Source: Mobula birostris
Taxonomy: Eukaryota
Length of the DNA: 64,000 nucleotides
Reading direction: 5' to 3'
Assembly (NCBI RefSeq): GCF_030028105.1
Contig: NC_092378.1
Location: 15,208,762 to 15,272,761, forward strand
Part shown: piece by piece, positions 11,301-64,000 of the stretch
Numbering within the stretch: the first letter of the stretch is position 1
Layout of the letters: each line of letters begins with the position of its first letter
Program-made: the position numbers and the translations under genes
The notes under the pieces: model-generated
Seen by the model: the letters and a program-made list of their open reading frames with translations, nothing else
What the model was told of the DNA's origin: nothing
Databases searched by the model: none

Positions 11301-11325
11301 AAACCCTCCCCAAAAGTACTAACAA
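8323..11325 (-). mobile_element. CR1 LINE, nearly complete ORF2 (APE endonuclease and RT) with frameshifts
   Basis: [51 protein letters not shown] motifs in consecutive ORFs. Confidence 0.95.
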
Positions 11326-15771: not shown

Positions 15772-15970
15772 CGTTTTCTGCAGCTGGCTTCTGTTGGAGT
15801 TTTTCAGAAGAGACGACAGTTGCAATTTCTTTAATATCATTCATATTAATGTCACCACTCTGATTCATTCCCAGTACACTTTTCAGACGTGCAAGCTCCT
15901 TTGGTGCATTCTTCTTCCGTTTTTCTGCTCGCATCTTCCGCTTCCGTTTACTCCTTAAACTTTTTGCCAT
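15772..15970 (-). CDS. LLPH: LLP homolog, first coding exon ([30 protein letters not shown]...)
   Basis: Hallmark LLPH N-terminus; acceptor AG at 15980-15979, 8 nt before the ATG; donor G|GTATAT at 15772/15771. Confidence 0.96.
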
Positions 15971-16589
15971 TCTTTATGCTGTATTTGAATAAAAATGAAA
16001 TTACATAATTCCTCGTTTAAACAGAAAACTGCACATTGAATAAGTGACAAATCTTGCTTCCTAAAACTGCACGCTGAATGTCCCAAATATAAATTTTAAT
16101 ACTGATTTCTGTTACCCAGCACATACAATTTGGAATTCACTGTCTTCAAGTTCAATTCTAACACACTCCAAGCTAACAATGCCCATCTTACCAGGGCCCT
16201 GGGATGTAAAATAGAATCATATTCTGCAGTGCATCAGCTTTTACCAGCAATAAACAAAAAGCAATATGTTAATTTTTTTTGGGACACGTTTTATCTGATA
16301 TGAGCTTTTCCTACATAATAGCAAATTATTTATTTTGATTATTCAAGCACAACACAAGCAGAAAGAATACAAGATAGAACTTTTCTCTTATTTTTCAAAT
16401 TTTCCCTTCAATCCTTTTATTTAAGTTTATGGCTTGTCAGCATAACTCTTTGATATCCTTATGTACTTTGTAGGAAAATTGCAATCATTTAAGTTTTGAG
16501 TTTTGAAACTATCAAACATAAGCTTGTTATAGATGGTTGCATGAAATGTAAGGCTGTGATTAATAGGTGATTTTAACTTTCACGTGTTG

Positions 16590-17735: not shown

Positions 17736-20016
17736 CATTTCAAAGTGATAAGCAGCTCGGATATATTTGAAAAACTGAATTTATACAACAAGGAGTTACA
17801 AGGACAAAAACTGTAATCTCATATCATGCAAGGAGGCTACTACCGCTTTCCCTGGAAAACCTCAAAATTTTCAACAAGTTTATGGAATTTCCTTCACTGG
17901 TCAATCTTAAAATGGAATAGCAAGATAGTGATTTGATTGCATATCTTGATCATTTAAAACAACTGCACACTGATATGGAATTTAGGTTCAGAGACCTGCT
18001 GGAGATGCATATTGCAGATTGGTGGATCCATTTGGGGTGAATATGAATGATTTTGACACCACATTGCAAGAATGTCTTATTGAGCTGCAGTGATGTAACA
18101 GCTCAAACAAAACTCAAACACAGAAAGCAAAATTTTGGATAACTGTTAATATTCAAAATAAGTTTCCACAGCTCTGGGAGAAAGCAAAGTTGACTTTTTA
18201 AAATTCAGAGTCAGAATGAGGTTTATTATCACCGGCATGTGACGTGAAATTTGTTAATTTTGCAGCAGCAGTTCAATGCAATACCTAATCTAGCAGAGAA
18301 AAAGAAACAATTTTTTAAAAATTTAAAAAATAATAAGTAAATCAATTACAGTATATGTATATTGAATAGATTTTAAAATGTGCAAAAATAGAAATACTCT
18401 ATCTTAAAAAAAAGCGTCTAAAGATTCAACGTCCATTTAGAAATCGGATGGCAGAGGAGAAGAAGCTGTTCCTGAATCGCTGAGTGTGTGTGCCTTCAGG
18501 CTTCTGTACCTCCTACCTGATGGTAGCAGTGAGAAAAGGGCACGTCCTGGGTGCGGGAGGTCCTTAATAATGGACGCTGCCTTTCTGAGACACTGCTCCC
18601 TAAAGATGGCCTGCATACTTTGTAGGCTAGTACCCAAGATGGAGTTGACTAGATTTACAGCCTTCTACAGCTTCTTTCAGTCCTGTGCAGTGATACCAGA
18701 CAGTGATGCAGCCTGTCAGAATGCTCTCCATGGTACAATTGTATAAGTTTTTGAGTATATTTGTTGACATCCCAAATCACTTCAAACTCCTATTAAAGTA
18801 TAGCTGCTGTCTTGCCTTCTTTATAACAACATCAATATGTTGGAACCAGGTTAGATCCTCAGAGATCCTGACACCCAGGAACTTGAAACCACTCATTCTC
18901 TCCACTTCTGATCCCTCTATGAGGATTGGTATGTGCTCCTTCATCTTACCCTTCCTGAAGTCCACATTCAGGTCTTTCATCTTACTGACATTAAGTGCCA
19001 GGTTATGCTGCAGTGAGCATAGCACACATCCCTGAGGTGCGCCACTGTTGATTGTCAACGAGGAGGATATGTTATCACCAATCCGCACAGATTACGGTCT
19101 GCTTAAGAAGTTAGGGATCTAATTGCAGAGGGGGGTACAGAGGCCCAGGTTCTACAGCTTCTCAATCAGGATTGTGGGAGTGATGGTATTAAATGCTGAG
19201 CTATAGTTGATGAACAGCATCCTGACGTAGGTGCTTGTGTTGTCGAGGTGGTCTAAAGTCATGTGGAGAGCCACTGCGATTGCGTCTGTGTTGATCTATT
19301 GTGGCGATAGGCAAATTGCAATCGGTCCAGGTCCTTGCTGAGGCAGGAGTTCAGTCTAGTCACGACCAATCTCTCAAAGCATTTCATCGCTGTTGATGTG
19401 AGTGCTACCGGGTTTATAGTCATTAAGACAGCCCACATTCTTCTTCTTAAGCACTGGTATAATTGTTGCCTTTTTGAAACAAGTTGGAACTTCCACCCAT
19501 AGCAGTGAAAGATTGAAAATGTCCTTGAGTACTTCTGCTAGTTGGTCGGTACAGGTTTTCAGAGCGTTACCAGGTACTCCATCCAGACCTCCCGCCTTGC
19601 GAGGGTTCACTCTCTTTAAAGACAGCCTACTGGATTCCCACTATTTAGTTGAATGTAGCTTTAGTCAAGCTCTTAACCTGTATCAAAAGCTCGTAATCAT
19701 TTTAATGTTGTGAAGAGGTGATCCTCAATTTTCTTTAACCAAGTTGCAACCAGATATTCAAATACTTGCTAGTTTGCATCAGTCGCAAGGATCTCACTAA
19801 ATAGCTAAAGTAACAATATTAAGCGCTTTTTCATTGCTGGTTGGAAGAATATTGAATATATTATAAATAAAGTATCTTATTCAGAGCTTTGAAATAGTTT
19901 AATTTTTCATATATACCCGTATCATTTCATTTAACATATAATAGCTATAACCTATTAAAACATAAATATTGACTGGAACTTAGTACATTTGACCAAAAAG
20001 ATGTTAGGAACCACTG
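17735..20016 (+). mobile_element. Degenerate hAT transposase C-terminus split by a Rex1 LINE
   Basis: YLDHLKQLHTDMEFRFRDLL at about 17940-18000, YLVECSFS at about 19640, TIR-like TTAGGAACCACTG at about 20004-20016. Confidence 0.65.
18205..19628 (-). mobile_element. Rex1/Babar LINE RT and 3' end
   Basis: NPRKAGGLDGVPG, VPTCFKKATIIPV, GAPQGCVL, FKFLGVRISEDLTW, KAASIIKD. Confidence 0.9.
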
Positions 20017-20274
20017 TTGTACAAAGTATAGGTTATGAAAAATTACAGTGGAATATCTTGTGGGTTAAGGACACATAAGTGACTTTCAATCCAGATAAGA
20101 GTTATTGCATTCTGGGAGATCAAACTAGGCCAGGACTTGTACAGCGAATGGCGGAGCTCTGGGGAATGACATTATGACCCAAGTGTAAAGTCTGCAGAAA
20201 ACAGTGTCACAAATAGACAGGGTAGTGAAGAAAGCATTTGGCACACATACCGTCATCAGTCAGGGCACTGAATA

Positions 20275-22090
20275 ATCATCATAATCGGGTTTAATATCAT
20301 TGGCATATTTCGTGAAATTTGTTGTTTTGCAGCAGCAGTACACTGCAACACAATTAAAAAATAAATCTTACAAAAATATATAAAAAAATTAAACTAAGCA
20401 AGTAATGCAAGAAGAGAGCAAAAGGGAGGAATTGTTCATGGGCTTATTGTCCATTCAAAAATCTGATGACAACGTGGAAAAAGCTACTTCTGAAACGATG
20501 AATGTATGTCTTCAAACTCCTGTACCTCGTCCTTGATGGCAGCAATGAGAAGAGGGCATGTCCTGGATGTGGGGGGGGGTCTTTAACGATGGATGCCACC
20601 CTCTTGATGCACCGTCCTTCCAAGGTGTCCTGGGTGCTGGACAGGCTAGTGCCCATAAAGGAGCGGGCTGAGCTTACAACTTTCTGCAGCTTTTTCTGAT
20701 CCTGCGCAGTGGCACCACCATACCAGACAGTGGTACAACCAGTTAGAATGCTCTCCAAGGTACACCTGTAGAAATCTCTGTGTCTTTGGTGACAAACCAA
20801 GTCTCCTCAAACTCCTAATGAAATACAGCTACTGTTGTACCTTCTTTGTAACTGCATCAATGTGTTGGACCCAAGGTAGATCTTCAGAGCTATTGACACC
20901 CAGGAACTTGAAACTGGTCACCCTTTCCACTTCTGATCTCTCAATGAGAACTGGTGTGTTCCCCTTACTTCCTCTTCCTGAAGCCCACAATCAATTCCTT
21001 AGTCTCACTGACGTTGAATGCAAGGTTGTTACTGCGACACCATTCAACCTGCCGATAAATCTCATTCCTGTATGCCTCCTCATCACCATCCGAAATTCTG
21101 CCAACAATAATTGTGTTGTCAGCAAATTTATAGAGGGCCTAGCCATACGGTAGTGAGTGTAGAAAGAGTGGAGCAGTGGGTTAAGTGAGCACCAGTGTTG
21201 ACTGTCAGCAAGGAAATGTTATTTCTGATCTGCACTGACTGTGGTCTCCCAGTAAGGAAGCCAAGGATCCAATTGCACAGGGAGGTACAGAGATCCAGGG
21301 TTTAGAGCTTGTTGATTACAACAGAGGGTATGATTGTGTTGAACACCGAGCTGTAGTCAGTAAACAGCAGCACGATGTAGGTATTGCTATTGTCCAGGTG
21401 ATCCAAGGCCGAGTGGAGAGCCAGTGAGATTTTATCTGCTGTAAACCTATTGTGGTGACAGATAAATTGCAGTGGGTCCAGGTCCTTGCTTAGGCAGAAG
21501 CTGATTCTGGCCATGACCAACCTCTCAAAGCACTTCATCACAGTAGATGTGAGTGCAACTGGGCAAATCGTTGAGGCAGCTCATCCTGCTCTTCCTGGGC
21601 ACTGGTATGATTGTTACTCTTTTGAAGCAGGTGGGAACCTCCGACCGCAGCAGTGAGACATTGAAGATGTCCTTGAACACTCCCACCATTTGGATGGACA
21701 TGTCTGAAATGCCTTACCAGGTACACCATGAGGGCCTGATGCCTTGCAGAGGTTCACCTTTTGAAGGATGTTCTGACATCCGCCTTTGAGACAGAGATCA
21801 CAGGGCTGCCAGATGCTTCAGTGATTTGCACAGGTGTAGTTTTATTCTCCCTTTCAAAGCATGCATAAATGGCATTGTGCTCATCTGGGAGTGAAGCATC
21901 ACGGCCATTCATGATGTTAGGTTTTGCTTTGTAGGAAGTAAAAGCCTACAAACTCTGCCAGAGCTGATGAGCATTCGTTCATAACTTCAATCAAAATTCT
22001 TTTTTTCTCGCTCTTAAAATAGACTTCTTGGATTTCTTTTATCGTTCTGGATCACTGGTCTCGAATGCCACAGTCCTTGCCCTCAGTATA
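20275..22090 (-). mobile_element. Rex1/Babar LINE inserted in a plus-strand CR1 3' fragment (about 20040-20275 and 22090-22650)
   Basis: [36 protein letters not shown]; flanks carry CR1 LGLYSLECRRLRG. Confidence 0.85.
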
Positions 22091-23909: not shown

Positions 23910-24530
23910 AAAAACACGAGAAAGCCTGCAGATGCTAGAAATCCAAAGCAACACACACAAATGCCAGAGGGACTCCGCAGGTCAGGCAGCATCTATGGAA
24001 AGGGGTAAACAGTCGATGTTTCGGGCCGAGACCCTTGTTCAGGATTGAGAAGGTGGAAGATGCAAGAATAAAGAGGTGGGAAGTGGAGAGTGGACAACAG
24101 GAGAAAGAAAAGAATAAAGTTATTCTGTCTGAGTACCCTCCAATTTGATGGGACGAATAGTGATTTCTCCTTCTGGTGAACAAATCCACCCTCTCCCCAC
24201 CCCCATTCCTCCTTCCCCATTCCCCACTCTGATCCTTTCTTTCTCGTCACCTGCATATTACTTCCCCTGGGTCCCCTCCTTCTAACCTTTCTCCCACCCT
24301 TGACCTTTCCTACCCACCTGGCTTCACCTATCAGCTTCTAGTTAGCCTCTCCCCCCACCCCACCTTTTCATCCTTTCATCTTCCCTCTTCCTTATTAGTT
24401 TAATTCCTTATTAGATTTGATTTCCTACAAATCTCACTGCGGTCTTGGCCCAAAAAGTTGACTGTATACTCACTTCCTTAGATGCTGCCTGACTTGCTGA
24501 GTTCCTCCAATATTTTGTGTGTGTTGAAGT
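23910..24530. mobile_element. Penelope-like element fragment with inverted terminal repeat parts
   Basis: Minus terminal repeat about 23910-24110; plus-strand GIY-YIG C-terminal remnant, pyrimidine tract and terminal repeat about 24135-24530; both hammerhead motifs degenerate. Confidence 0.75.
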
Positions 24531-26304: not shown

Positions 26305-26850
26305 AAAAGGACGGAGAGGAGGTGTAGGGACAGGTATGACATTTTGCAGAGTTACGGGGATAAGTGCCTGGAGAGGGATGAGCAGACAAGGAACTGCCAA
26401 CTACATAAATGACACCAATGAGTGAACAAGTAAAAGATTGCCTCGTGTGGAAGGGACGTTTAGGTCCCTGATGGTGGTGAGAGAGGAGGTGTAGGGGCAG
26501 GTATAACACTGAGCCCAGTTACAGGGAAAAGTGTCTGGAGGGGGATTGCTAGGGGGAACCAGACAAACGAGTCATGGAGAGAGCAATCCTTGTGGAATGT
26601 GAAGAGGTGTGAGGAAAGATGTATCTGGTGGGATTGTTTTGGAGATGGCAGGCGTTGCAGAGGCTCATGGGTCATAGGTGGGTACAAGGATTCACTTATC
26701 ACGTGCCAGTTCTCACTCCACACCCTTTCATATTGGCCATCTCTTTCTTTCCGGTCCTGAAGATCTCAACCCAAAACATCGACTGTCCATTTCCCGCCAT
26801 AGATGTGCTGGACCTGCTGTGTTCCTCCAGTATTTTGTGTGTTGCTCTAC
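26305..26850. mobile_element. Penelope-like fragments: minus-strand internal part plus plus-strand terminal repeat
   Basis: QGPKRPFHTRQSFTCSLIGVIY on the minus strand; degenerate hammerhead and GCTGGACCTGCTGTGTTCCTCCAG at about 26753-26845. Confidence 0.7.
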
Positions 26851-27950: not shown

Positions 27951-28912
27951 TTGATCCAATCAGTTTCAAATTTAGCTCATGAAGGATCTCAGCCCAAAAT
28001 GTCAAATGATTACTCTTTTCTATAGATGCTGCCAGGCCTGCTGAGTTCCTCTAGCATTTTGTGTGTATTACTCAAATTTATCTGTTACTGAAGTATGAAT
28101 TAACTGGTGTGCACACATAACACTAACATTGGTGTCAGGTTCAGTCAGCCATATAGCATTAGAATAGGTTTTATGGCCTATTAAGTCAATGCAAACCATC
28201 AAGCACCCACTTACGCTAATCCCATTTTATTCTCCCCACATCATATCAACTTCAAAGAGATAGCACCAGAGGTCAAGATCGAAGCTGGGTCGTTGGAGCT
28301 GTGCTGTAACGCTGTACCAGTGTAACACACAATCATTGACCCCTATATATATCATGCACTAGCTACATCAAATATTTTTGTAGCATTGCGTGGGACACTT
28401 CAACTGAATTATTGTCGAGAAAAATAGATGTCTACTTACATGCCTGCAAGGGAAAAATGCTGGCAGGTATTCAACTTGAGTTTTTGAATAAGCAGTGTAC
28501 GTGAGACTTCAGAATTTCTCAGTCAGATGAATTGCTTTGTACATTTAGTATTTTATCGATGACTTAAAAATGCTTTTCTCATTTCTAATCATTGTGTTCA
28601 TCACTCTCATTTGTACCCTCCCCTCTTTTGCCGAAACTTGTTTCTCCATATCTGCAAATTTGTTCCTCTGTCATCACCCCAGTAAGACTAAACTGCACAA
28701 ACTTCAAATAAAAAGTATTTCTATTTCCATAAACATAAGAGATTCTGCAGATACCAGAGACCAAGAGTAATTCACACAAAATGCTGGAGGAACTCAGCAG
28801 GTCAGGCATCATTTATGGATTGGCCTGAAACATCCAGATTCCAGCATTTTGTGTGCATTATTTTTATTTCCATAATTGTTTTCCTGGAACTTAAGATCAC
28901 AAAGTATTATTA

Positions 28913-32910: not shown

Positions 32911-33182
32911 GAGCAACACATACAAAATGCTGGTGAACGCAGCAGGCCAGGCAGCAACTATTAGAAGAGGTACAGTCGACGTTTTGGGCCGAGACCCTTT
33001 GTCAGGACTAACTGAAAGAATCTCTTACTATCTCTTCTTTCAGTTAGTCCTGACGAAAGGTCTCGGCCCGAAACGTCGACTGTACCTCTTCCAATAGATG
33101 CTGCCTGGCCTGCTGTGTTCCACCAGCATTTTGCGTGTGTTGCTTGAACTTCCAGCATCTGCAGACTTCTTCGTGTTTGCAT
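32911..33182. mobile_element. Penelope-like terminal-repeat insertion with inverted duplication
   Basis: Arms 32912-33020 and 33035-33144 are inverted; 11-bp TSD TAGATAATAAC at 32900-32910 and 33183-33193. Confidence 0.9.
33046..33081 (+). ncRNA. Minimal type I hammerhead ribozyme motif (PLE type)
   Basis: AGTC CTGACGA A AGGTCTCGGCCC GAAA CGTC GACT: intact core and GUC cleavage triplet; one mismatch at the base of stem II. Confidence 0.7.
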
Positions 33183-33363: not shown

Positions 33364-35716
33364 CAGTGGTCCCCAACCACCCGGCCACGAGGAAACAATA
33401 CGATTTGGCGATATGAAATGATATGAGTCAGCTGCACCTTTCCTCATTCCCTGTCACGCCCACTGTTGAACTTGAACGCATGTGAGGTCATCAGTCGGTC
33501 ATTAACCTACAACTACTTGATGAGTAAAAAACAAACTGCTTGAGAGTTTCTTTGGAAGAGGTGGTAGGGGACCTAGAAGCCCCAATGATGATGATAACGC
33601 AGAGACAGCTGAGGCCAAGACTGCAAAAAAAAAGCTTCCTTCAACAGAAAATACGAGTTGTACATAAAATATGGCTTTATTGCGACCGGTGACTCGAACA
33701 CTCCAAGCCCCCTGTGTGTGATATGTGGAGACAAGCTGTCTAATGAGGCAATGAAGCCCTCAAAACTGCTTCGGCACCTTGAGTCCAAGCACCCTGCACT
33801 TAAAGACAAACCTGTTAAGTTTTTTGAGTGGAAAAAATGTGAGCAAGCGGGACAGAAGCAAGTGCTGACAGCCACCACCTCCACAAATTCTGCTGCTCTG
33901 AGAGCGTCGTACTTAGGGCTAGCCGTATTGCTAAGGCTAAGAAGCCTTTCACTGTTGGTGAAAAATTGATTCTGCCTGCTACCAAGGACATGTGCCGTGA
34001 ACTGTTGGGAGAAGCTGCAGCTAACAAGATGGCACAGGTTTCTCTTTCAGCTACCACAGTTTCAAGGAGAATCGACGACATAGCAGAGGACATCGAAGCA
34101 CAGCTGTTGGAATGGCTTAACGAGCCACCATGGTAAGCTACCCAGGTCGACGAGTCTACCGATGTCGACAACAAGGCAATACTGCTGGTTTATGTGCGAT
34201 ATATATTTCAAGACGATGTGCACGAGGATATGTTGTGTGCACTGCCGCTGCCAATTAACACAACTGGGGCAGAACTATTCAAGTCTTTGAATGACTACAT
34301 GTTAGGCAAACTGGACTGGTCATTCTGTGTTGGAATATGCACAGTCCGGGCTGCAGCTATTACCGGACGGCTGTCTGGTTTCACTACCCAAGTCAAAGGG
34401 GTTGCTCCTGAATGCCAGCCTACACACTGTGTCATACACAGGGAAATGCTGGCTAGCCAAAAAACGTCACCTGATCTTAACAGCATATTGCGTGACGTTG
34501 TTGAAGTTATCAATCACATCAAAGCAAAAGCCCTTAACTCAAGTCTGCTTGAGCAGCTTTGCGAGGAAATGGATGCAGAGCACAAATACCTTCCGATTAC
34601 ACACTGAAGTCAGGTGGCTATCAAGGGGGAGAGCCCTGGCCAGGGTTTTTGAGCTAAGAATTTCTTTCAGCTACGGATTTCTTTCAGCTAAGAATTTCTT
34701 TCAGCTACGGATTTCTTTCAGGAAAAAAGTCACCACAGGCAGCACACTTCAGTGATGAGGAGTGGATAGCAAAACTCGCTTATCTGTGTGACATCTTCAA
34801 CCTGCTCAATGAACTCAATTTGTCACTTCAGGGGAGAATGACAACTGTCTTCAAGTTGGCAGATGAAACGTCTGCTTTCAAAGCCAAACTGGAACTGTGG
34901 GGATGGCGAGTGGACAGCGGCATATTTGACATGTTCCCAAAATTAGCTGGGATTTTGGGAGAGACTGAGGCTACACTGTCCTTCTCACAGCTGGTGCGCA
35001 ATCACCTATCTTCGCTGTCGACAGAATTCGAGCGTTACTTCCAAACCGCAAATGACCCAAGACGTGCAAAGGAATGTGTCTGAGACCCATTTGTGAATGT
35101 CCCTGGTGAATCATCCATGTCAGCGCGGGAAGAAGATCAACTCCTCGAGCTTGCAAATGACGGCGGGCTGAAAAGTATGTTTGACATAACATCTCTGCCG
35201 GCATTCTGGATCAAAGTTAAGGCTGAATATCCTGAGATAGCCATGAAAGCACTGAAAACGTTGCTTCCATTTCCAACATCATATCTCTGCGAAGCGGGGT
35301 TTTCTGCAATGAATGCAGAGAAACAAGCGCAGGGCTCCCACTGATTCAGCGATATTGGTGTGTTGCAATGATTTTATATGTTCATACGTGGAAAATATGC
35401 GCTGTGTGTTTAATATCCAAACATTACTTAAAATGTTAGGATGCTATTGACTTATAAGTGACTTATAATTGACTTATCACTATACTCATGCGAGGAAAAT
35501 ATGTGGTGTGTTTAATATTAAATTCGTTAGATAAACCCTTTTAGAAACAAAATTGAGTGTACAGGTATTAGCCACTTATAAGTGACTTATAGTTGACTTA
35601 TCACCTATATTCCGGTCATGATTAACACCCCCCCCCCCCCACCCCCGTTGGCCAGTCCACAAGAATATTATCAATATTAAACCGGTCCGCGGAGCAAAAA
35701 AAGGTTGGGGACCCCG
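33364..35716 (+). mobile_element. Full-length hAT (Buster/Charlie-type) DNA transposon with pseudogenised transposase
   Basis: TIRs CAGTGGTCCCCAACC and GGTTGGGGACCCCG; 8-bp TSD ATTTAGAG; BED-like CVIC...LRHLESKH, VDESTD, HCVIHRE, RWLSRG, PFPTSYLCEAGFS; stops and frameshifts. Confidence 0.95.
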
Positions 35717-41659: not shown

Positions 41660-41750
41660 GAATCCTGCTGAAGGGTCTCGACCCGGAACATCGACTGTAC
41701 TCTTTTCCGTAGAGCCTGCTGAGCTCCTCCAGCATTTTGTGTGTGCTGCA
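41660..41750 (+). mobile_element. Penelope-like terminal repeat fragment with degenerate hammerhead
   Basis: CTGCTGA AGGGTCTCGACCC GGAA CATC GACTGTAC...CTCCAGCATTTTGTGTGTG. Confidence 0.75.
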
Positions 41751-44352: not shown

Positions 44353-44590
44353 ATGGCTGGCCGGCGCCTGCGGAATCGCAAAATTATTGTTGTTGAAGGT
44401 TTCATTCTGCCACCCAAAGAAGCAAGTAATAAGAAGAAGAAGAAGGGGGAAGAGGAGGGAGAAATAGAGTCGGACGCAGACGAGAATCTGGAACATGAGG
44501 ATGACCTGCAGTTCCACGACCTCAAGGATATGATAGAGATTTCCCTCGGTGCAACTTCCATCAACGCCTCTAAGGTGGCCAAGCGGTTCG
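44353..44590 (+). CDS. HELB: DNA helicase B exon 1
   Basis: MAGRR...VEGFILPPK, acidic tract, LQFHDLKDM; donor G|GTAATT, phase 1 matches exon 2. Confidence 0.8.
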
Positions 44591-45104: not shown

Positions 45105-47090
45105 ACCTATCTGGGCAAGGCAGCAGCAAGCCAGACCAACAGCACTGTGGTCGGCTCTGAGCCTCAGGAGGGTAGGGTGAAGTCAGGCGGAGCAATAGTC
45201 ATAGGGGACTCGATGGTTAGGGGGACAGATAGGAGATTCTGCGGCAGCAAAAGAGACATCAGGATAGTGTGTGGCCTCCCGGGTGCTAGGGTCCAGGATG
45301 TCTCTGAGCGGTTGCAGAATATTCTTGAAGGGGAGGGTGAGCAGCCAGATGTCGTGGTACATGTTGGTACCAATGGCATGTGCAGGAGGGCAGGGTTACA
45401 AGTTCTTGGACCCTTGGAACCTTTTCTGGGAAAGGGGTGACCTGTACAAGTGAGTTGTGTTGCAACTGAACTGAAGGGGAACCCATATCCTGGGAGGGAG
45501 GTTTGCTAATGTTATTGGGGAGGGTTTAAACTAGATTTGCAGGGGTTGGGTACCAAATTGAAGAGGCAGAGGATGGGGTAGTTGGCGCACAAGTAGTGAC
45601 GGCTTGTAGGGAGTTTATGAGGAAGGATAGGCAGATGATGAAACAAAGAAGCATTCAGCTAGATGGTTTGAGATGTGTCTAGTTTAATGCAAGGAGTTTC
45701 ATAAGCAAGCGTGGAACTATGATGTTGTGTCCATTACAGAGACTTGGACGACTCAGGGGCAGGAATGGCTACTTAGAGTGCCAGACTTTAGATGTTTCAG
45801 AAAGGACAGAGAGGGAGGCAAAACAGGTGGCAGAGTGGCACTGCTAATCAGGAATAGTATTGCAGCTGCAGAAAAGGAGAAATTTATGAAGGGATTGTCT
45901 ACTGAGTCACTGTAGGTGTAAGTCAGAAACAGGAAGGGGGCAATAACTCTACTGTGTTTTTTATAGACCCCCCCCCAATAATAACAGAGACATCGAGGAG
46001 CTGATGGAGGCAGACTCTGGAACAGTACAATAATAATAGGGTTGTTGTGATGGGTGATTTTAACTTTCCTAATATTGACTGGCATCTCCTTAAAACAAGG
46101 GGTTCAGATGGGGTAGAGTTTGTTAGGTGTGTTCAGGAAGGTTTCCTGACAATATGTAGATACGCCAACTAGAGGAGAGACTGTCTTTGATCTGGTATTG
46201 GGAAATGAACCTGGTCAGCTGTCAGATCTCTCGGTGGGAGAGCATTTTGGAGGTACTGATCACAATTCTATCATCTTTACCATAGCGCTGGAGAGGGATA
46301 GGAACAGAAAATTTGGGAAAACATTTAATTGGGGTAGGAGGAAATATGATGCTATTAGGCAAGAACTTGGGAACATAAATTGGGAGCAGATGTTCTCAGG
46401 GAAAAGCACAGCAAAAATGTGGTAAATGTTCACGGAACATTTGCATGGCATTCTGCATAGGTATGTTTCATTGAGGCAGGGACAGCATGGTAGGGAAAAA
46501 GAACCATGGTGTACAAAGGATGTAGAAAATCTGGTGAAGAAGAAAAGAAAAGCTTATGAAAGGTTCAAGAAGCTAGGTATTGTTAGAGCTCTAGAAAATT
46601 ACAAGGGTGCCAGGAAGGAGCTCCAGAATGAAATTAGGAGAGACAGAGGGGGGCCATGAGAAGGCCTTGGTGAGCAGGGTTAAGGAAAACACCAAGGCAT
46701 TCAACAAGTATGAGGATGAGAAGTGACCCGATAGAGGTGTATAAGATGATGAGAGGCTTTGATCGTGTGGATAGCCAGAGGCTTTTTTCCAGGGCTGGAA
46801 TGGCTAACACGAGGGGGCATAGTATTAAGGTGCTTGGAAGCAGGTACAAGGGGGATGTCAGAGGTAAGTTTGTTACATAGAGAGTGATGGGTGTGTGAAA
46901 TGCACTGCCAGTGAAGGTGGTAGAGGTGGATACAATAGGATCTTTTAAGAGACTCTTAGGTACATGGAGCTTAGAAAAATAGAGGGCTATGTGGTAGGAA
47001 AATTCTAGGCAATTTCTAGAGTAGGTTAATTGGTCAGCACAACATTGTGGGCTGAAGGGCCTGTAATGTGCTGAAGATTTCTATGTTTCT
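45105..47090 (+). mobile_element. CR1 LINE with SGNH-esterase ORF1 remnant, APE domain, internal deletion and 3' end
   Basis: IVIGDSMVRG...LPGARVQDV...VHVGTN, then ITETW and GDFNFP; jumps to the 3' end near 46715. Confidence 0.9.
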
Positions 47091-47915
47091 ATTACAGCAC
47101 TTTGCAGGCCCTTCAGTCCACTATGTTGTGCAGACCTATTTACCCTTTGAGGACCTCTTAGTCGGGGTTGACCGTGGATGAATCGCCAAAGCTGTTTACG
47201 TGTTTCACAAGACAAGGTAATATGACATGGAGAGACAAGCTGTCGCCCATACAACAAGCTCTCCCTCCACACAACTGACGAATCAAAACAAATGCCGAGA
47301 CTGATGCAGTTTTAACCTTTTAGCCTACTGTAAGATCAATCTAACTCTTCCCTCCTATAGAGCCGTCCAAATTTCTGTTGTCCATGTCTCTTAAATGTCC
47401 CTAATGTACCTGCCTTTCTGTACCACCACCCCTGGCAGTGCATTCCATGCACACACCGTTGTCTGTGTGTGTTTTTAAAAAAAAAACATGTACTTTTGCC
47501 ATTCCCCTGATACTTTTCTCCAATCAACTGAAAGTATGTGCCCTTGTATTAGCCATTTCCACCCTGAGAAAAAGTCTTTGGCTGTATACTTGAAAACTGG
47601 ATAGAGAAAACATTTTAGCAATGAAGCTTTATTTGGGCTGAGGTTAAATACAAATACAAATTAAATAATGTACAATGTGATGAATTATTGAATAAACTCG
47701 TCTCAGGCTTCCAGCCGGGTACAGGTATCAATCTTAACCGACGGTTCAATGCCAACTCTGCCATCTTCTTTAGGGATGATTATCACGCAGTAATCAGAAT
47801 TTTAAAAGTTTTCATTTCCTGTGAGAGAATGGGTATCTACAGCATGAAAACAAGTAGTTGAATGAGGCCAAATAGGGGAGGAAAGCTATTCAACTGTTTA
47901 TCAATTTTCTTACAG

Positions 47916-48281
47916 TTAAATTGAAAGACCTTCGCTCTGGTGACACTTACAAAGTGGTAGGACGGTTCCAGTTTACTTCTCCTTGGTGGAAAGTGACAGC
48001 AAAAATCTTCTGTCATCAGAAAAAATGGTATCTTCAGGGGTATCCTTCTTATGCTCTGAGGATCCTGACTGAAAAGGAACATGATATTGTCAGCCTTTTC
48101 TTAACAAAATGTGGCATCCACTCAGATCACGTAAATATATTTTTTGAATACTTGACTTGCCATGGTCTTCAATTTCCAGAAGTATTGAACACTTTACAAC
48201 AGATTGCAGACAAGGAAAAGAAAAAGGATGAAAATAAAAGTCGTTTTCAAAGTTGCATAAATCGCCACATATTTAATTCAG
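47916..48281 (+). CDS. HELB: DNA helicase B exon 2
   Basis: KVVGRFQFTSPWWKV...LQGYPSYAL resembles human KVFGRFPITGAWWRV...QGFPSYFL; tacAG acceptor and G|GTAAGT donor. Confidence 0.92.
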
Positions 48282-50750: not shown

Positions 50751-51140
50751 ATGTACATCAAAACATACAGTTCCTCCCTCACTACCATTCAGGGCCCCAG
50801 ACAGTCCTTCCAGGTGAGGCGACACTTCACCTGTGAGTCGGCTGGGGTGATATACTGCGTCTGGTGCTCCCGATGTGGCCTTCTATATATTGGCGAGACC
50901 TGGCGCAGACTGGGAGATCGTTTTGCTGAACACCTACGCTCTGTCTGCCAGAGAAAGCAGGATCTCCCAGTGGCCACACATTTTAATTCCACGTCCCATT
51001 CCTATTCTGATATGTCTATCCACGGCCTCCTCTACTGTAAAGATGAAGCCACACTCAGGTTGGAGGAACAACACCTTATGTTCCGTCTGGGTAACCTCCA
51101 ACCTGATGGCATGAATATTGACTTCTCAAACTTCCGCTAA
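50751..51140 (+). CDS. Penelope-type GIY-YIG endonuclease domain ORF (transposon-derived; expression unknown)
   Basis: FTC...GVIYCVWCSRCGLLYIGET.R.L..RF.EH...H F...EEQH...GMN without stops. Confidence 0.7.
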   Translation: MYIKTYSSSLTTIQGPRQSFQVRRHFTCESAGVIYCVWCSRCGLLYIGETWRRLGDRFAEHLRSVCQRKQDLPVATHFNSTSHSYSDMSIHGLLYCKDEATLRLEEQHLMFRLGNLQPDGMNIDFSNFR

Positions 51141-51543
51141 TGCCCCACCTCCCCCTTGTACCCCATCCATTATTTATTTATATACACACATTCTTTTTCT
51201 CCCTCTCCTTTTTTTCCCTCTGTCCCCCTCACTATACCCCTTGCCCCTCCTCTGGGCTTTCCCCCCCTGTCCCTTTTCATTCTCCCTGGGCTTCCTGTCC
51301 CATGATCCTCTCATATCCCTTTTGCCAATCACCTGTCCAGCTCTTGGCTCCATTCCTCCCCCTCCTGTCTTCTCCTATCATTTTGGATCTCCCCCTCCCC
51401 CTCCCCCTCCCACTTTCAAATCTCTTTCTAGCTCTTCTTTCAGTTAGTCCTGATGAAGGGTCTTGGCCCGAAACGTTGACTGTACCTCTTCCTAGAGGTG
51501 CTGCCTGGCCTGCTGCGTTCACCAGCAACTTTTATGTGTGTCT
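50771..51543 (+). mobile_element. 5'-truncated Penelope-like retroelement (GIY-YIG, pyrimidine tract, terminal repeat)
   Basis: GIY-YIG ORF followed by a C/T-rich UTR and a hammerhead-containing terminal repeat; interrupts a minus-strand SINE. Confidence 0.93.
51446..51481 (+). ncRNA. Minimal type I hammerhead ribozyme motif (PLE type)
   Basis: AGTC CTGATGA A GGGT-CTTG-GCCC GAAA CGTT GACT: stem I, core, stem II, palindromic ACGT, GUU triplet. Confidence 0.8.
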
Positions 51544-52567
51544 CAGTGAAATGCATCGTTTTGTGTCAACAACAAAAACATCTGAGGGCATGTTAGGGGC
51601 AGCCTGCAAGTGTCGCGATGCTTCTGGTACCAACATAGCATGCCCACAACTTACTAACCCTAACACATACGTCTTTGAAATGTAGGAGGAAACCAGAGGA
51701 CCTGGAGGAAACTCACATGTCCGGGGGAGAACTTGTAGTCAGAGGCAAGAATTTAGCCCTTATTGATTTGTCTGATTGATTTTACACCTGGTGCCCTTAA
51801 ATCTTATAACTATAGATTTAAGTTTAAGTCACTTAAATCAATATTGAAATCCATTTGCCACTCCTCGGTCCACTAGCCTAACTGATTACGATCCCCTTGT
51901 AATCAGTATTGGCTTACTACTTCATCATCATCAACATGGCATAATTTAAGGTCTTTGGGCCTTTTGAGCCTATTATTATTCAGTACAAATCTAACCCAAC
52001 TCCTTGTCACCCTGTGCCATAATCTTTGATTCCCTTTCATATTCAAAAATTCTGCCTTGAATTTACTGAACAATTGTGTCCTGAGACATTTCCAGGTGTC
52101 CACAATGAAGCAAGAGGTTTTTCCTCATTACTCTTTTATAATCTTATAGTTTATTCGGTGACTGAATTCTGTTTCTACTTTCTTTAGGTACAATCTACAT
52201 CCACCCAATATCTACCCATTTAAAACATTAAATATTTCTGTTAGATTGTCTCATTCTTTTAAACACTGTGGCAGGTAGGAATGATCATTCTCTCCATCTC
52301 AGATAATTGACCATTTAAAGACAAAGATAACATTATATGGAATTTTGAAGATTTCATATGAATCGGATTATTGATTTTGTTGAAGATAATTTGTAGTTGC
52401 GTATTTATAAGTAATTTTAAAACAGGCAATGCAAGTGATTGAAGTATAGTAAAGTTTTATAATGTCAGGCACTGAACCTAATGGGATTGTTAGTATTAAT
52501 CTGTCTCTGTATATTTATGTGTGTGTAAAATAAAGCTTGAGCTTCAAGGTAATAACTGATAATTTAG

Positions 52568-52734
52568 TTGAAGGTCAGAATGTGCTGAAAGGTTTGAAGT
52601 TCCAAAGCCTGATGAAGTATCTGCCACAGCTTCTGCCACGGTCCTTTTTGCATATTTTGGACACGAGCAATAATGCCCTTGAGAATCTGGAGCAGATGAT
52701 TTGTACAGAAGTGTGGAAGTTGGGATTCCGTTCT
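52568..52734 (+). CDS. HELB: DNA helicase B exon 3
   Basis: LMKYLPQLLPRSF...LEQMICTEVWKLGF; ttAG acceptor in phase 1, GTAAGT donor in phase 0. Confidence 0.9.
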
Positions 52735-53302
52735 GTAAGTTTTTCCCAGATATCACAATACACTATTTATTCTTAATTTTTATACTCTCGATTTTCATCA
52801 GGAGTGAGTTAATTGCTCTTCTGAGATTAATTTATTATTTGGCTTTAAGATAATCGAGCTGCAAAATCACATTTGAAAATTATTTTCTGGTAATTGCTTA
52901 ATCTTTTAATCACTTGGAGATGAAAAATAAAGATTTGAGTGGGCAGGGGTCTCGGCGGTGATGAGATAACTGTCTCACTAATTATTTGCAAGTGGATTTG
53001 CAGAATATGGTGATAAAAATTTGAAAATCAGCAAAATATATTAACCTTGCTGTGAGAGAACCAAAGTTGGGGGTGGGGGGGAGGTGGGTAAAAATGTGAC
53101 AAGAATTGTGGAAAGATGAACAAGAATGAGAGAATGTCTTAAACAAAAACTACCAAGGATGATCAATTGGTTTTGCCAAAACTGAAAATTGTTGCACCTT
53201 ATTTACTTTCTGATGAATGGTTGTTGCAACTCAGATACATTTGCTTTCATTATTAATGATTGGCTCAAGAAATACTTTATGAAAAATATTACTTCTTCCT
53301 AG

Positions 53303-54115
53303 ATTCTCTCTAAGGAGTTTAACCTTATTGGTTGTGAGGCAAGGTTGTCAGCCTTTGAAGAAGCTGATCTTCTTCAGACAATTCCAGAGATACAGAAACA
53401 TGCTCTCATAATTTATGATAAACTCAAAGAAACCTGTTGGAGTAATGGACACACTTATGTAAGAATTGATGAGTTGACTGGATTACGCCCAACTGAGATT
53501 AGCATTGAAAGTGAATGGGATTCGTTAAATTTTTTGAAGGAATCAAAGATTATTGTAATTGAAAAGAAGCGAGTATACCTTGAGCATTTGTACAACTATG
53601 AGAAAGAAATTGCTATGTGTATAAAGGATCTTGTGGATAAACCACCATGGCATATTTCTCTCAATGTGGAAGAAGTTCTAAGAAGTGCATTCACCCCACC
53701 CCAGATGGAATGCTTCTCTAAGGGGAAAGAGTTTGAGAGTACAGAGGACAGTGAAAGAGTTAATTTGGATCCGGATCAGATTCGAGCTGCTAACATGATG
53801 TGTGAAAATCCTGTTACAGTTATAAGTGGTAAAGGTGGTTCTGGGAAAACCACACTTGTCAGTCTTATTTTCAAGGCAGCAGTTAAAAATATGCACATTG
53901 CAGAGAAAGAAGAACTTTTGCAAGCATGTGAAGATCTTGAGCAGGATCAATCTGCTCCTGAATGCTGGGATATTCCAACAAGTAAAATTCCAAACGCTGA
54001 CCAGGTTGAAAAACAGAATGTCAGCAAAGCAACTGTGCTGTTCACTGCCCCAACTGGAAGGGCAGCATCTCTTTTGAATAAAAAAACTGGATTTCCTGCT
54101 TATACTTTACACCAG
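53303..54115 (+). CDS. HELB: DNA helicase B exon 4 (RecD-like SF1B motifs I and Ia)
   Basis: GHTY, LYNYEKEIA, LDPDQ, Walker A ISGKGGSGKTT, TAPTGRAA, AYTLHQ; cctAG acceptor and CAG|GTAATT donor. Confidence 0.97.
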
Positions 54116-54959
54116 GTAATTGCTACTGAGAATTTTGTTGTCGCTACTTCAACATTTGTTTATGCTTAGTATGATGCAAATAGTTGACCTTTAAAAGGAA
54201 CACACCACCAATCACCAAGTTTGAGGTTAAACTTAGTGTGGATATTATAAAATGTTTATTATTGTAGGCTTTCTGCAAAATTTGATGTAATATTGATGTT
54301 TACATTTTTTAAAAAATATTAATTTGTTTATTATATGCTGTACCATATGACATGGGCCATTATGGTGTTTCCATGACCATGATTGTTCCTGGCAAATTTT
54401 TCTACAGAAGTGGTTTACTATTGCCGCCTTCTGCTAGTGTCTTACCTTAAAATACCTTAAAATATTTTGTTGTATATTGTTGATTGGACAGTGATATTAT
54501 TTGACACTAACTTTAGTTTCTCTTCCTGATTTTGTAGGATCAATCAATTATGGTTGTGTTGCGACTAAAAAGCTAGGAAATTGTGTGTTAGGAAGCCTAT
54601 AATGGCTGCTTGAAGTGACTGATGGGTATCAAGAAATTTGCCTGGAAAAGTCTTGCATATAATTACAGTCAAGACAGCATTATCTATATTAACGTTTAAT
54701 CTATGTCACCTTTGACAAATGCAATTTAAGTAATAAAAATGGCTGACAAAGTCAAGTGACTGAAAAGTAGTCAAATGGTGGAACAGGACGCCTTTTAGAT
54801 GGTTGGAAAGATGAAAATGCAGAAGATGACTTGACACAACAACAGGTTTTCCTCAACAGGAGATCCAGATTGTAACCACCTGGAAGAAGGGAGAGTCAAA
54901 TGATGTTGATGCATATTTGGTGTACTTGACTTTGCAACAGATGATGTTGCTTCCCGGTA

Positions 54960-59199: not shown

Positions 59200-61357
59200 T
59201 AGAAACATAGAAACATAGAAAATAGGTGCAGGAGTAGGCCATTCGGCCCTTCGAGCCTGCACCGCCATTTATTATGATCATGGCTGATCATCCAACTCAG
59301 AACCCCGCCCCAGCCCTCCCTCCATACCCCCTGATCCCTTTAGCCACAAGGGCCATATCTAACTCCCTCTTAAATATAGCCAATGTACTGGCCTCAACTG
59401 CTTCCTGTGGCAGAGAATTCCACAGATTCACCACTCTCTGAGTGAAGAAGTTTTTCCTAATCTCGGTCCTAAAAGGCTTCCCCTTTATCCTCAAACTGTG
59501 ACCCCTCGATCTGGACTTCCCCAACATCGGGAACAATCTTCCTGCATCTAGCCTGTCCAATCCCTTTAGGATTTTATACGTTTCAATCAAATCCCCCCTC
59601 AATCTTCTAAATTCCAACGAGTACAAGCCCAGTTCATCCAGTCTTTCTTCATATGAAAGTCCTGCCATCCCAGGAATCAATCTGGTGAACCTTCTTTGTA
59701 CTCCCTCTATGGCAAGGATGTCTTTCCTCAGATTAGGGGACCAAAACTGCACACAATACTCAGGTGTGGTCTCACCAAGGCCTTGTACAACTGCAGTAGT
59801 ACCTCCCTGCTCCTGTACTCGAATCCTCTCGCTATAAATGCCAGCATACCATTCGCCTTTTTCACCGCCTGCTGTACCTGCATGCCCACTTTCAATGACT
59901 GGTGTATAATGACACCCAGGTCTCGTTGCACCTCCCCTTTTCCTAATCGGCCACCATTCAGATAATAATCTGTTTTCCTATTTTTGCTACCAAAGTGGAT
60001 AACTTCACATTTATCCACATTAAATTGCATCTGCCATGAATTTGCCCACTCACCCAACCTATCCAAGTTACTCTGCATCCTCTTAGCATCCTCCTCACAG
60101 CTAACACTGCCACCCAGCTTCGTGTCATCTGCAAACTTGGAGATGCTGCATTTAATTCCCTCATCCAAGTCATTAATATATATTGTAAACAACTGGGGTC
60201 CCAGCACTGAGCCTTGCGGTACCCCACTAGTCACCGCCTGCCATTCTGAAAAGGTCCTGTTTATTCCCACTCTTTGCTTCCTGTCTGCTAACCAATTCTC
60301 CATCCACATCAATACCTTACCCCCAATACCATGTGCTTTAAGTTTGCACACTAATCTCCTGTGTGGGACCTTGTCAAAAGCCTTTTGAAAATCCAAATAT
60401 ACCACATCCACTGGTTCTCCCCTATCCACTCTACTAGTTACATCCTCAAAAAATACTATGAGATTCGTCAGACATGATTTTCCCTTCACAAATCCATGTT
60501 GACTTTGTCCGATGATTTCACCGCTTTCCAAATGTGCTGTTATCACATCTTTGATAACTGACTCCAGCAGTTTCCCCACCACCGACGTTAGGCTAACCGG
60601 TCTATAATTCCCCGGTTTCTCTTTCCCTCCTTTTTTAAAAAGTGGGGTTACATTAGCCACCCTCCAATCCTCAGGAACTAGTCCAGAATCTAACGAGTTT
60701 TGAAAAATTATCACTAATGCATCCACTATTTCTTGGGCTACTTCCTTAAGCACTCTAGGATGCAGACCATCTGGCCTTGGGGATTTATCTGCCTTCAATC
60801 CCTTCAATTTACCTAACACCACTTCCCTACTAACAAGTATTTCGCTCAGTTCCTCCATCTCACTGGACCCTCTGTCCCCTACTATTTCTGGAAGATTATT
60901 TATGTCCTTAGTGAAGACAGAACCAAAGTAATTATTCAATTGGTCTGCCATGTCCTTGCTCCCCATAATCAATTCACCTGTTTCTGTCTGTAGGGGACCT
61001 ACATTTGTCTTTACCAGTCTTTTCCTTTTTACATACCTATAAAAGCTTTTACAGTCAGTTTTTATGTTCCCTACCAGTTTTCTTACATAATCTTTTTTCC
61101 CCTTCCTAATTAAGCCCTTTGTCCTCCTCTGCTGAACTCTGAATTTCTCCCAGTCCTCAGGTGAGCCACTTTCTCTGGCTAATTTGTATGCTGCTTCTTT
61201 GGAATTGATACTATCCCTAATTTCTCTTGTCAGCCACGGGTGCACTACCTTCCTTGATTTATTCTTTTGCCAAACTGGGATGAACAATTGTTGTAGTTCA
61301 TCCATGCAACCTTTACATGCTTGCCATTGCATATCCACCGTCAATCCTTTAAGTGTC
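59200..61357 (-). mobile_element. Young 5'-truncated CR1 LINE (RT largely intact)
   Basis: About 540 uninterrupted codons with [21 protein letters not shown] and KFADD; one frameshift near 59755; (TTCTATGT)n tail. Confidence 0.97.
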
Positions 61358-61729
61358 TTCTGTCGGTCAAACCTGGACTTTTTGTATAGTTCTGGATCAC
61401 TGGTCTTGAATGCCATAGATCTAGCCCTCAGCAGACTACGAATTTATGTATTAATCCATTGCTTTTGGTTTGGGTATATCTGGTATGTTCTCAAAGCCAC
61501 ACTCTCATCCACACAGGTCTTGAAGTTGGTGACAACTGTGGCATATTCATTCAGAGTCAAAGATGAATCCCTGAATATTGTCCAGTCGATTGATTCAAAG
61601 CAGTCCTGTAGGTGCTCCTCCACTTCCCTTGACCATATCTATTTGGTTCAAACTGCTGGTGCTGTGGTCTTTAGTCTCTGCCAGTACACTGGAGTAGAAG
61701 CACAGGCAGGTGATCAGACTTCCTATGTA

Positions 61730-64000
61730 CAAAATCAGGAATCGAAAGATTGGGCATGGTGGGATTAATGTTCTGAACTGTGTATATTTCAATGTAAGGA
61801 GTATTGTAAGAAAGGTGGATGAGCTTAGGGTATGGATCAGCACATGGAATTATGATATTATAGTGATTAGTGAAACTTGGTTGCAGGAAAGACAGGACTG
61901 GCAGCTCAATGCTGCAGGATTCTGTTGCTTTAGGTGTGATAGAGCTGGAGGGGTGGTATTACTAGTCAGAGAAAATGACAGGAGGTATGTCATCTGCTGA
62001 AGGCTAGATCTGTGGCATTCAGGTCTGGCAACCCAAGTTTGTACGAGAAAACTAGGTATGACTTATGGAGGGCTATTTCAAGGGCAAAGAAACAATTTCG
62101 AACAGGGTTGGAGGCGACATCAGATGTACGACAGCTCTGGCAGGGTTTGCTAAACATTACTTCCTACAAAGTGAAACCCAAAAACAGCATGAATGGCAGT
62201 GATGCTTCACTATCAGATGAACTCAACGCCTTCTACACCCACTTTGAAAGGGAGAATATGACTGCAGCTGTGAAGATCCCTGCTGCACCCAGTGACCCTG
62301 TGGTCTCTGTCTTAGAGGCCGATGTTAGGCTTCTTTAGAGGGGGTGAACCCTCGCAAGGCAGAAGGTCCTGGTAAGGCTCAGAAAACTTGTACCAGCCAA
62401 CTGGCGGGAGTATTCAAGGAAATTTTCAACCCCTCACTGCTACGGGTGGAAGTTCCCACTTGCTTCAAAAAGACAAGAATTATGCCAGTGCCTAAGAAGA
62501 TTAATGTGAGCTGCCTAAATGATTATCGCCTGGTAGCACTCACATCGACAGTGATGAAATGCTTTGAGAGGTTGGTCATGACTAGGCTGAAACTCCTGCC
62601 TCAGCGAGGACCTGGACCCACTGAAATTTGCCTATCACCACAATAGATCAACGGCAGACACAATCTCAATAGTTCTTCACGTGGCCTGAGACCACCTGGA
62701 CAACACAAGCACCTACGTCAGGGTGCTGTTCATCAACTATAGCTCAACATTTAACACCATCATTCCCACAATCCTGATTGATAAGTTACAGAACCTGGGC
62801 TTCTGTACCTCCCTCTGCAATTGGATCCTCAGCTGGCTAACTGGAAGACCTCAATCTGTGCATATTGGTGATAATATCTTCTCCATGCTGACGATCAACA
62901 CTGGTGCACCTTGGGTGTGTGCTTAGCCCACAGCTCTACTCTTTCTATACCCATGACTGTGTGGCTAGGCATAGCTCAGATACCATATATAAATTTGCTG
63001 ACGACACAACCATTGTTGGTAGAATCTCAGATGGAGATGGAAGGGCGTACAGGAATGAGATATACCAACTAGTGGAGTGGTACTGCAGCGACAACCTATC
63101 ATTCAACGTCAGTAAGACGAAAGAGCTGATTGTGGACTTCAGGAAGGGTAAGACAAAGGAACACATACCAATCCTCATAGAGGGATCAGAAATGGAGAGA
63201 GTGAGCAGTTTCAAGTTCCTGGGTGTCAAGATCTCTGAGGATTTAACCTGCTCCCAACATATTGATGCAGCTATAAAGAAGGCAAAACAGTGACTACTTC
63301 ATTAGGAGTTCACAGAGATTTGGTATGTCAACAAAAACACTCAAAAACTTCTATAGATGTACAATGGAGAGCATTCTAACAGGCTGCGTCACTGTCTGGT
63401 ATTGGGGAGGGGTGCTACTGCGCAGGACTGAAAGAAGCTGCAGATGGTCGTAAATGTAGTCTGTTCCATCTTGGGTACTAGTCTACAAAGTACCCAGGAC
63501 AACTTCAGGGAGTAGAGTCTTAGAAAGGTACCCTCCAGCACCCAGGGCATGTCCTTTTCTCACTGTTACCATCAGGTAGGGGATACAGAAGCCTGAAGGC
63601 ACACACTCAGCGATTCAGGAACAGCTTCTTCCCCTCTGCCATCCAATTCCTAAATGGACATTGAACCAATGAGCATTACCTCACTTTTTTAATATATGTT
63701 ATTTCTGTTTTTGCACGATTTTTAATCTATGCAATATACATATACTTTATTTATATTTTCCTTCTATATTATGTATTGTATTGAACTGCTGATGCGAAGT
63801 TAACAAATTTCACGTCACATGCCGGTGATAATAAACCTGATTCTAATTCAGATTCTGATTTTGATCGTAATGCTCAGACAGGACAGACTGGAGGGTTTGT
63901 CTACTGAGGCTATATGGGTGGAACAGAGGAATAAGAAAGGGATGTCCACATTAGTAGGATTATGTTAAAGACCACCCAACAGTCCACAGGATTTAGAGGA
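61730..64000 (+). mobile_element. CR1 APE fragment (about 61730-61980 and 63865-64000) split by a Rex1/Babar LINE (about 61985-63860)
   Basis: CVYFNVRSI...ISETWLQ stops at LLVREN and resumes at RQDRLEGLSTE; the insert has [16 protein letters not shown] and FKFLGVKISEDLT. Confidence 0.88.

Follow-up and report, generated by a model that had tools for sequence, protein, structure and literature searches.

A minimal hammerhead motif in HELB intron 2 of Mobula birostris: the pseudo-LTR ribozyme of a Neptune-type Penelope-like element, probably a passive passenger

Introduction

A hammerhead ribozyme motif lying in sense within an intron of a protein-coding gene raises two questions: where the motif comes from, and whether it cuts the transcript in which it is embedded. 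This situation is met in the window analysed here, a stretch of 64,000 nucleotides of the ray Mobula birostris (assembly GCF_030028105.1, contig NC_092378.1, positions 15,208,762 to 15,272,761 of the forward strand). An earlier note, made from the sequence alone, had described a minimal hammerhead at positions 51446-51481 of this window, within intron 2 of the DNA helicase B gene (HELB), had assigned it to a family carried by Penelope-like terminal repeats, and had proposed that the HELB pre-mRNA might be cleaved by pairing in trans with another copy.

The reading that we prefer, with a probability of about 0.88, is that the motif is the pseudo-LTR hammerhead of a Neptune-type Penelope-like retrotransposon, that it reached HELB intron 2 with a 5'-truncated insertion, and that it is likely a passive, decaying passenger which leaves the HELB transcript uncut. 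Below, we describe the host gene, the motif and the element that carries it, then the decay of the family and the positions at which its copies begin.

The host gene and its surroundings

A DNA helicase B record from Mobula matches the exon at 53303 with 99% identity. Four HELB coding exons were placed on the forward strand by exon mapping and a spliced contig, exon 1 at 44353-44589, exon 2 at 47915-48280, exon 3 at 52567-52737 and exon 4 at 53303-54116, and the remaining exons continue into neighbouring stretches beyond the window. The motif lies in sense in coding intron 2, between exon 2 upstream and exon 3 downstream. Exons 1-4 are joined without differences in one contig from run X2, and exons 2-4 in one contig from run X4, both runs being presumed RNA; these are assembled contigs, the sampled animals may be without the insertion, and partial cutting would be compatible with them. 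The runs gave no heaping of ends, which says nothing about cutting, as RNA ends are not preserved in assembled contigs.

The rest of the window holds the first coding exon of an LLPH homologue at 15719-15973 (-) (Pfam LLPH, E=2e-23) and several kinds of mobile DNA. The broken open reading frames at 33613-35344 (+) presumably derive from a hAT-type DNA transposase, which they resemble, and we take the stretches at 5890-11318 (-), 59297-61443 (-), 18205-21966 and 61979-63852 to be decayed LINE-type reverse transcriptase (RT) and endonuclease pieces, among them one open frame of 571 amino acids. At 47023-47146, inverted LINE tails form a long hairpin that gives weak Rfam microRNA matches.

A minimal type I hammerhead motif

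Read from the sequence, positions 51446-51481 (+) run AGTC-CTGATGA-A-GGGT(CTTG)GCCC-GAAA-CG-TT-GACT, and a minimal type I hammerhead motif is recognised there by pattern, by descriptor and by folding of the 36-mer. In hammerhead numbering (after PMC4209133 and PMC7151607, each in part), the motif is made up of a 4-bp stem I (51446-51449/51478-51481), the core CUGAUGA (C3-A9, 51450-51456) with every conserved core base present, an extra A after A9 (51457), a 4-bp stem II closed by the pair G10.1-C11.1 (51458-51461/51466-51469) and the GAAA of G12-A15.1 (51470-51473). Helix III is absent and the palindrome ACGU (15.2-16.2) stands at 51473-51476; H17 is U (51477), and the cut is predicted between 51477 and 51478. 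The stem I/core/stem II layout, the replacement of stem III by a palindromic ACGT and the predicted cut all agree with what the earlier note had read.

The core pattern alone occurs at chance level in the window, with one match against 0.30 expected and matches in 27 of 100 shuffles. The full descriptor, which combines core, stem I, stem II and UH, gave 21 matches in a genome sample of 70 evenly spaced 10-kb pieces (700 kb, large chromosomes only); 20 of them belong to the Penelope-like family, and the reversed control gave 0. The motif passes this minimal type I search, which the earlier note had proposed as a check, and is its sole match within the 64-kb window. Descriptor and exon mapping together uphold the description of this copy as the best of the window, in sense in HELB intron 2. 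Both stems fold in the isolated 36-mer, with ordinary stability (z -0.62), and no Rfam hammerhead model is found among the 12 window matches at E<=10. At the level of sequence, 51446-51481 is confirmed as a genuine minimal hammerhead of a known class, with a predicted cut site.

The eight related motifs listed by the earlier note are all present in the window, where a profile search based on natural copies found 10 family members. Seven of the eight have altered or absent core bases. The remaining one, at 33046-33081 (+), is the second-best copy: its core and GUC site are intact, and the closing pair of stem II is mismatched (A-C at 10.1-11.1). It stands head-to-head with a decayed copy at 32974-33009 (-), in which G8 and G12 are changed. 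Further decayed copies are found at 1913-1948 (+; A6 changed), 24011-24046 (-; G8 and palindrome), 41661-41696 (+; A6, A13 and palindrome), 27972-28007 (+; G5 and G12) and 26736-26842 (+; stem II deletion and G12 changed). The profile also matches a fragment without the CUGANGA core at 24441-24524 (+) and a tail fragment without the motif at 28773-28819 (-), the latter being a ninth relative absent from the earlier list. Around the head-to-head pair, the tail fragments at 32916-33140 form a long hairpin with a sub-threshold Rfam mir-961 match.

The GGGT/ACCC of the copy at 41662 had been put forward as consistent with stem II pairing. It provides no such evidence, because the G>A change is one-sided, the core of that copy is broken, and a pair-breaking G>A at 51460 is exactly as frequent as the G>A at the 41662 stem II position (13 of 93 copies in each case).

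The Penelope-like element that carries the motif

The motif ends 60 bases short of the end of a 776-bp repeat, which repeat comparison delimits at 50766-51541 (+) as a 5'-truncated Neptune-type Penelope-like element ending at the first 3'-end site of its family. This element is 85-94% identical to copies at 29 other loci and 89.4% identical to a full-length element, L172. Its first part (50766-51140, +) is the 3' end of an open reading frame, encoding by translation and Pfam the C-terminal GIY-YIG endonuclease part and a stop codon (E=4e-4, weaker than the curated cut-off); it is followed by a pyrimidine-rich, non-coding pseudo-LTR part (51141-51445, +), delimited by sequence and folding. Genome-wide, the endonuclease part gave 186,350 first-look candidates, 150 of which were scored, at 91-100% identity.

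Longer copies carry RT, DKG, YIDD, a CX4CxxC linker and GIY-YIG in one frame. In L061, RVT_1 (E=3e-5) and GIY-YIG (E=0.003) are both weaker than the curated cut-offs; the open frame of L172 has 1,114 codons, with 1,087 amino acids from the first Met. A CX2-5CxxC linker marks Neptune and Nematis Penelope-like elements (PMC8557442, in part). By this linker and its RT/GIY-YIG layout the element would be of Neptune type, a clade assignment made from the linker, which is shared with Nematis.

Four of the six long elements examined have a directly oriented motif at either end, at a spacing of 3,501-3,728 bases; of the other two, one begins inside the motif and one has an inverted motif. That full-length relatives carry the motif at both ends bears out its attribution to Penelope-like terminal repeats. 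Inverted, 5'-truncated partner copies are common in the family, and its 3' ends fall at two sites, at the equivalents of about 51541-51548 and about 51572-51582, which are some 40 bases apart and define the known tail. In the six long young elements L171-L176, which were picked via the query of one subfamily, the conserved G-C is replaced by G10.1-U11.1 in 11 of 11 motifs (51469 equivalent). A short upstream open reading frame begins 20 bases past the predicted cut (L085 2306-2256 (-); window equivalent 51498), and the HELB copy is without its ATG at the 51498 equivalent.

Copy number, decay and constraint

A 34-base pattern comprising the intact core, G10.1-C11.1 and an NUH site has 10,261 exact matches in the genome and 0 in the control, and a 29-base G10.1-U11.1 variant has 27,030. 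The 700-kb sample contains 145 family matches (control 0), which scales to about 830,000 when fragments are counted and the large chromosomes only are considered. The very high copy number claimed in the earlier note is amply borne out by the intact-core matches. Among the 145 sample matches, 93 span the motif and the other 52, too short, were left out. The core is kept in 33 of the 93; in 13 of these both stems and the palindrome are intact too, and three of the 13 have G-C at 10.1-11.1. Thirteen intact copies in 700 kb correspond to about 19 per Mb, or about one per 50-60 kb. Hence, one intact copy in HELB is unremarkable, since the density in the genome predicts about one per window.

Decay is pronounced at CpG positions, in the core as well as at the cut site, where 27-52% of copies are altered. 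Conservation and covariation, which the earlier note had named among its checks, were both examined. Covariation in the stems is absent: eight two-sided changes were counted against 7.8 in shuffles, and 841 of 2000 shuffles reach eight, a comparison within one family and of low power; the covariation published in 2014 is across families (PMC4209133, in part). Master copies, on the other hand, show a sign of constraint on the motif. Their non-CpG columns are polymorphic at 1 of 27 positions in the motif, the free N7, versus 20 of 68 in the flanks (P=0.006). This constraint is not unique to the ribozyme, because the block at 51496-51527 varies hardly more (polymorphic in 3 of 32 columns); non-CpG core positions differ at 9.5% versus 12.9% in the downstream block (P=0.003, a raw value uncorrected for base composition). 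Relatives for a cross-species comparison were sought in a metagenome collection by protein and pattern search, which returned none.

Where copies of the family begin

Junction counts place a preferred 5' junction of family copies at 51446 (51444-51450, +). They were made on 224 de-duplicated young copies, unselected on the junction region and non-random in that the set is enriched for loci chosen by the 5' part of the open reading frame. In this set, 16 of 118 copies at risk start at 51445-51448, over a background that does not exceed 0.5% per base (P about 2e-9); for 51477-51480 the count is 3 of 151 (P=0.2). Genome-wide, a base other than T directly precedes 51446 in 2,274 of 27,030 copies (8.4%). 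The corresponding figures are 332 of at most 24,756 (at least 1.3%) at the control position 51440 and 865 of 61,386 (1.4%, purines only) at the cut site, where 17 of 30 inspected cases (18 by eye) are point changes. All 30 inspected starts at 51446 are true junctions by their printed flanks; in 29 of them the insert extends only 88-146 bases in the 3' direction (one was unmeasured), and 15 are joined to other element pieces. Thousands of inserts of 90-145 bp run from the first base of the ribozyme to either of the 3'-end sites.

Several explanations of these 5' ends, and one of the template, were weighed. A template made by cleavage predicts starts at 51478; there is no excess of starts at the cut site, and cleavage as the origin of the 5' ends was therefore rejected. 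Stalling of RT at stem I was judged, by reasoning, a less likely cause of the peak at 51446, because RT should stall 3' of the stem. As in D. virilis Penelope, the pseudo-LTR might contain an intron, here one that ends at the motif. This reading finds no support: no canonical joint is found among the 15 of 116 joints listed, and the sequence upstream of the 51446 junctions shows no exon in common. Copying of both pseudo-LTRs from one circular template does not fit two of four full-length elements (L171, L174), whose ends differ at subfamily-type sites; the other two are compatible with it. The end differences in L171 (6651/3123) and L174 (3385/6886) suggest either that two templates were used or that an older copy was the insertion target.

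The junction at 51446 falls within what we take to be an Initiator-like word, YYANWYY (51444-51450), which is one of eight such words in the pseudo-LTR and so a weak sign. An internal promoter is described in D. virilis Penelope (PMC2377424, in part), and an Inr-like word in rotifer pseudo-LTRs (PMC3846280, in part).

The junctions suggest that the RNA of the element has the first ribozyme base as its 5' end and is reverse-transcribed without being cut. A fuller scheme can be proposed tentatively, and we would put it somewhat below an even chance. The first base of the hammerhead would be the exact start of the RNA; RT, coming from the pseudo-LTR/ORF junction, would run 100-140 nt to this end and would either leave thousands of ribozyme-headed mini-insertions or jump as retroviral strong-stop DNA does. 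The 5' hammerhead would then be free, and the 3' and host-embedded ones would be damped by upstream pyrimidines.

Does the HELB copy cut its transcript?

The cleavage site of the HELB copy is GUU; GUC is found in 82 of 130 copies. GUC and GUA are the fast hammerhead sites, and the NUH rule permits GUU (PMC3138052, in part). With at least 20 upstream bases included, folding predicts that 51431-51443 pairs with 51450-51461 (P 0.66-0.85) and that the probability of stem I is then 0.017 at most. Such folding concerns secondary structure only, and ignores proteins and co-transcriptional folding. Two of 200 shuffled flanks mask the core as well as the HELB copy's own flank does. Across the family masking is partial, exceeding 0.5 in 8 of 28 young copies (mean 0.29 versus 0.08 in shuffled flanks), and two of six other pyrimidine stretches pair with the core too, so that a masking hairpin designed as a family feature is supported in part only. 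The polypyrimidine stretches and AG flanking the motif (51432-51447, 51484-51497) resemble splice acceptors. Sense intronic copies could act as cryptic acceptors, and some host protein records are found among the element's homologues (P0139, P0158).

No second intact sense copy was found in HELB. For a trans complex with one site, 4+4 pairs are available, and secondary structure prediction gives +3.3 to +9.8 kcal/mol relative to the separate monomers. In published work, single minimal hammerheads were uncleaved in vitro and dimers were cleaved little (PMC4209133, in part). The hammerhead of an anole Penelope-like element was cut only with the element's protein and was dispensable for insertion, and anole RNA-seq had no reads ending at its cut site (PMC11167929, in part). 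Because of the GUU site, the masked core, the missing partner, the unfavourable energy, the spliced contigs and this literature, cutting of its transcript by the HELB copy is unlikely, and the earlier proposal of cleavage in trans is not sustained.

Weighing the explanations

In the passive-passenger reading, the RNA of an active element would begin at the first base of the motif, and the uncut RNA would be the template for reverse transcription. Selection on master copies would maintain the motif, which would cleave poorly unless helped by a second copy or by the protein of the element. In the HELB copy, upstream pyrimidines would pair with the core, no partner would be near, and the intron would be spliced normally. 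What counts against this reading is that the HELB copy keeps all core bases and G10.1-C11.1, with a GUU that is within NUH. An intact core and site are also what low-level cutting in trans would need, through stem I and the ACGU palindrome, with the element protein helping in tissues that express it and no benefit to the host. Potential partners are abundant, RNA-like runs cover the family sequence at high depth, and protein-assisted cleavage has been demonstrated for the anole element (PMC11167929, in part). Yet only eight intermolecular pairs would form, at an unfavourable energy, GUU is not among the two fastest sites, copies starting at the cut site are not in excess, and no anole reads ended there (PMC11167929, in part); we regard such cutting as quite improbable. 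That the host has co-opted the HELB copy as a regulator of HELB expression is barely credible. The copy is indeed the sole one in the window to pass the descriptor, and lies in sense in an intron, but a 64-kb stretch should hold about one intact copy anyway. Moreover, its CpG sites, the cut site among them, show C>T changes as those of its sibling copies do, and its 776 bp are those of an ordinary truncated insertion.

A further explanation, compatible with a passive passenger in HELB, bears on why the family keeps the motif. It may be conserved for another reason, as a promoter or Initiator, a protein-binding site or a signal for RT, the hammerhead being a non-catalytic relic. The 5' junctions at the first base of the motif rather than at the cut site point in this direction, as do the absence of covariation among copies and the G10.1-U11.1 found in 11 of 11 motifs of long young elements, from loci obtained with one subfamily query. 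On the other side, N7 is the only non-CpG column that varies freely, which is what catalysis predicts, and the anole counterpart does cleave with protein (PMC11167929, in part). We consider a relic unlikely, if worth bearing in mind. The passive passenger remains the preferred account of the HELB copy.

Comparison with known systems

The motif adds a further copy to a class already described in 2014, and its placement in HELB is as density predicts. With the minimal hammerheads of Penelope-like elements (Cervera and De la Pena, 2014; PMC4209133, in part) it shares the type I order, the intact core, the lack of helix III, the palindromic 15.2-16.2, the extra base between 9 and 10.1, G10.1-C11.1 and a short helix I. 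The family has the same genomic habits, namely copies that number in the thousands and are mostly single, pairs that flank the RT open reading frame at a distance of about 3 kb, and close inverted pairs. Such motifs were reported there in fish Xena, Poseidon and Neptune elements. Differences are also seen: helix II has 4 bp here and 7-8 bp in the Schistosoma families, the copy number exceeds the 4,000 of coelacanth and 9,000 of Xenopus, and a large young ray subfamily has G10.1-U11.1. Rays are unnamed in the main text portion of that paper.

As in Neptune elements with an endonuclease (Arkhipova 2006 in Craig et al. 2021; PMC8557442, in part), there is a single open reading frame with RT and C-terminal GIY-YIG, DKG and the linker, together with partial-tandem pseudo-LTRs, inverted 5'-truncated copies and an optional tail of 30-40 bp; the linker also occurs in Nematis and does not tell Neptune and Nematis apart. 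The Anolis carolinensis Poseidon element PAc (Frangieh et al., 2024; PMC11167929, in part) likewise has a hammerhead at the pseudo-LTR/ORF junction, two 3'-end sites defining the tail and an uncut template. However, PAc belongs to a different clade, its open reading frame starts inside stem II, whereas the first Met of L172 lies about 170 nt past the motif's first base, and the main text part of that paper has no pile-up of 5' junctions at the first base. Animal non-LTR retrozymes (bioRxiv 10.64898/2026.07.22.740005, in part), found in one chondrichthyan genome, also have type I hammerheads from Penelope-like pseudo-LTRs. They are tandem arrays of non-coding units, whereas the HELB copy is a single truncated Penelope-like element joined to part of an endonuclease open reading frame, and identity with a retrozyme array was rejected on this ground.

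A literature search of limited coverage returned neither a ray Neptune hammerhead nor such a junction peak. The junction result is the one part of this work that may add to existing knowledge. The pattern argues against cleavage and circularisation as the main route for this ray Neptune-type family. If the fuller scheme proposed above were true, it would provide a genomic map of the transcript start of a Penelope-like element and would reveal a built-in, positional ribozyme switch. The family offers a test bed, as its tens of thousands of young copies allow the transposition intermediate to be read from junctions. Read in this way, the junctions indicate an RNA that is left uncut and begins with the ribozyme's first base.
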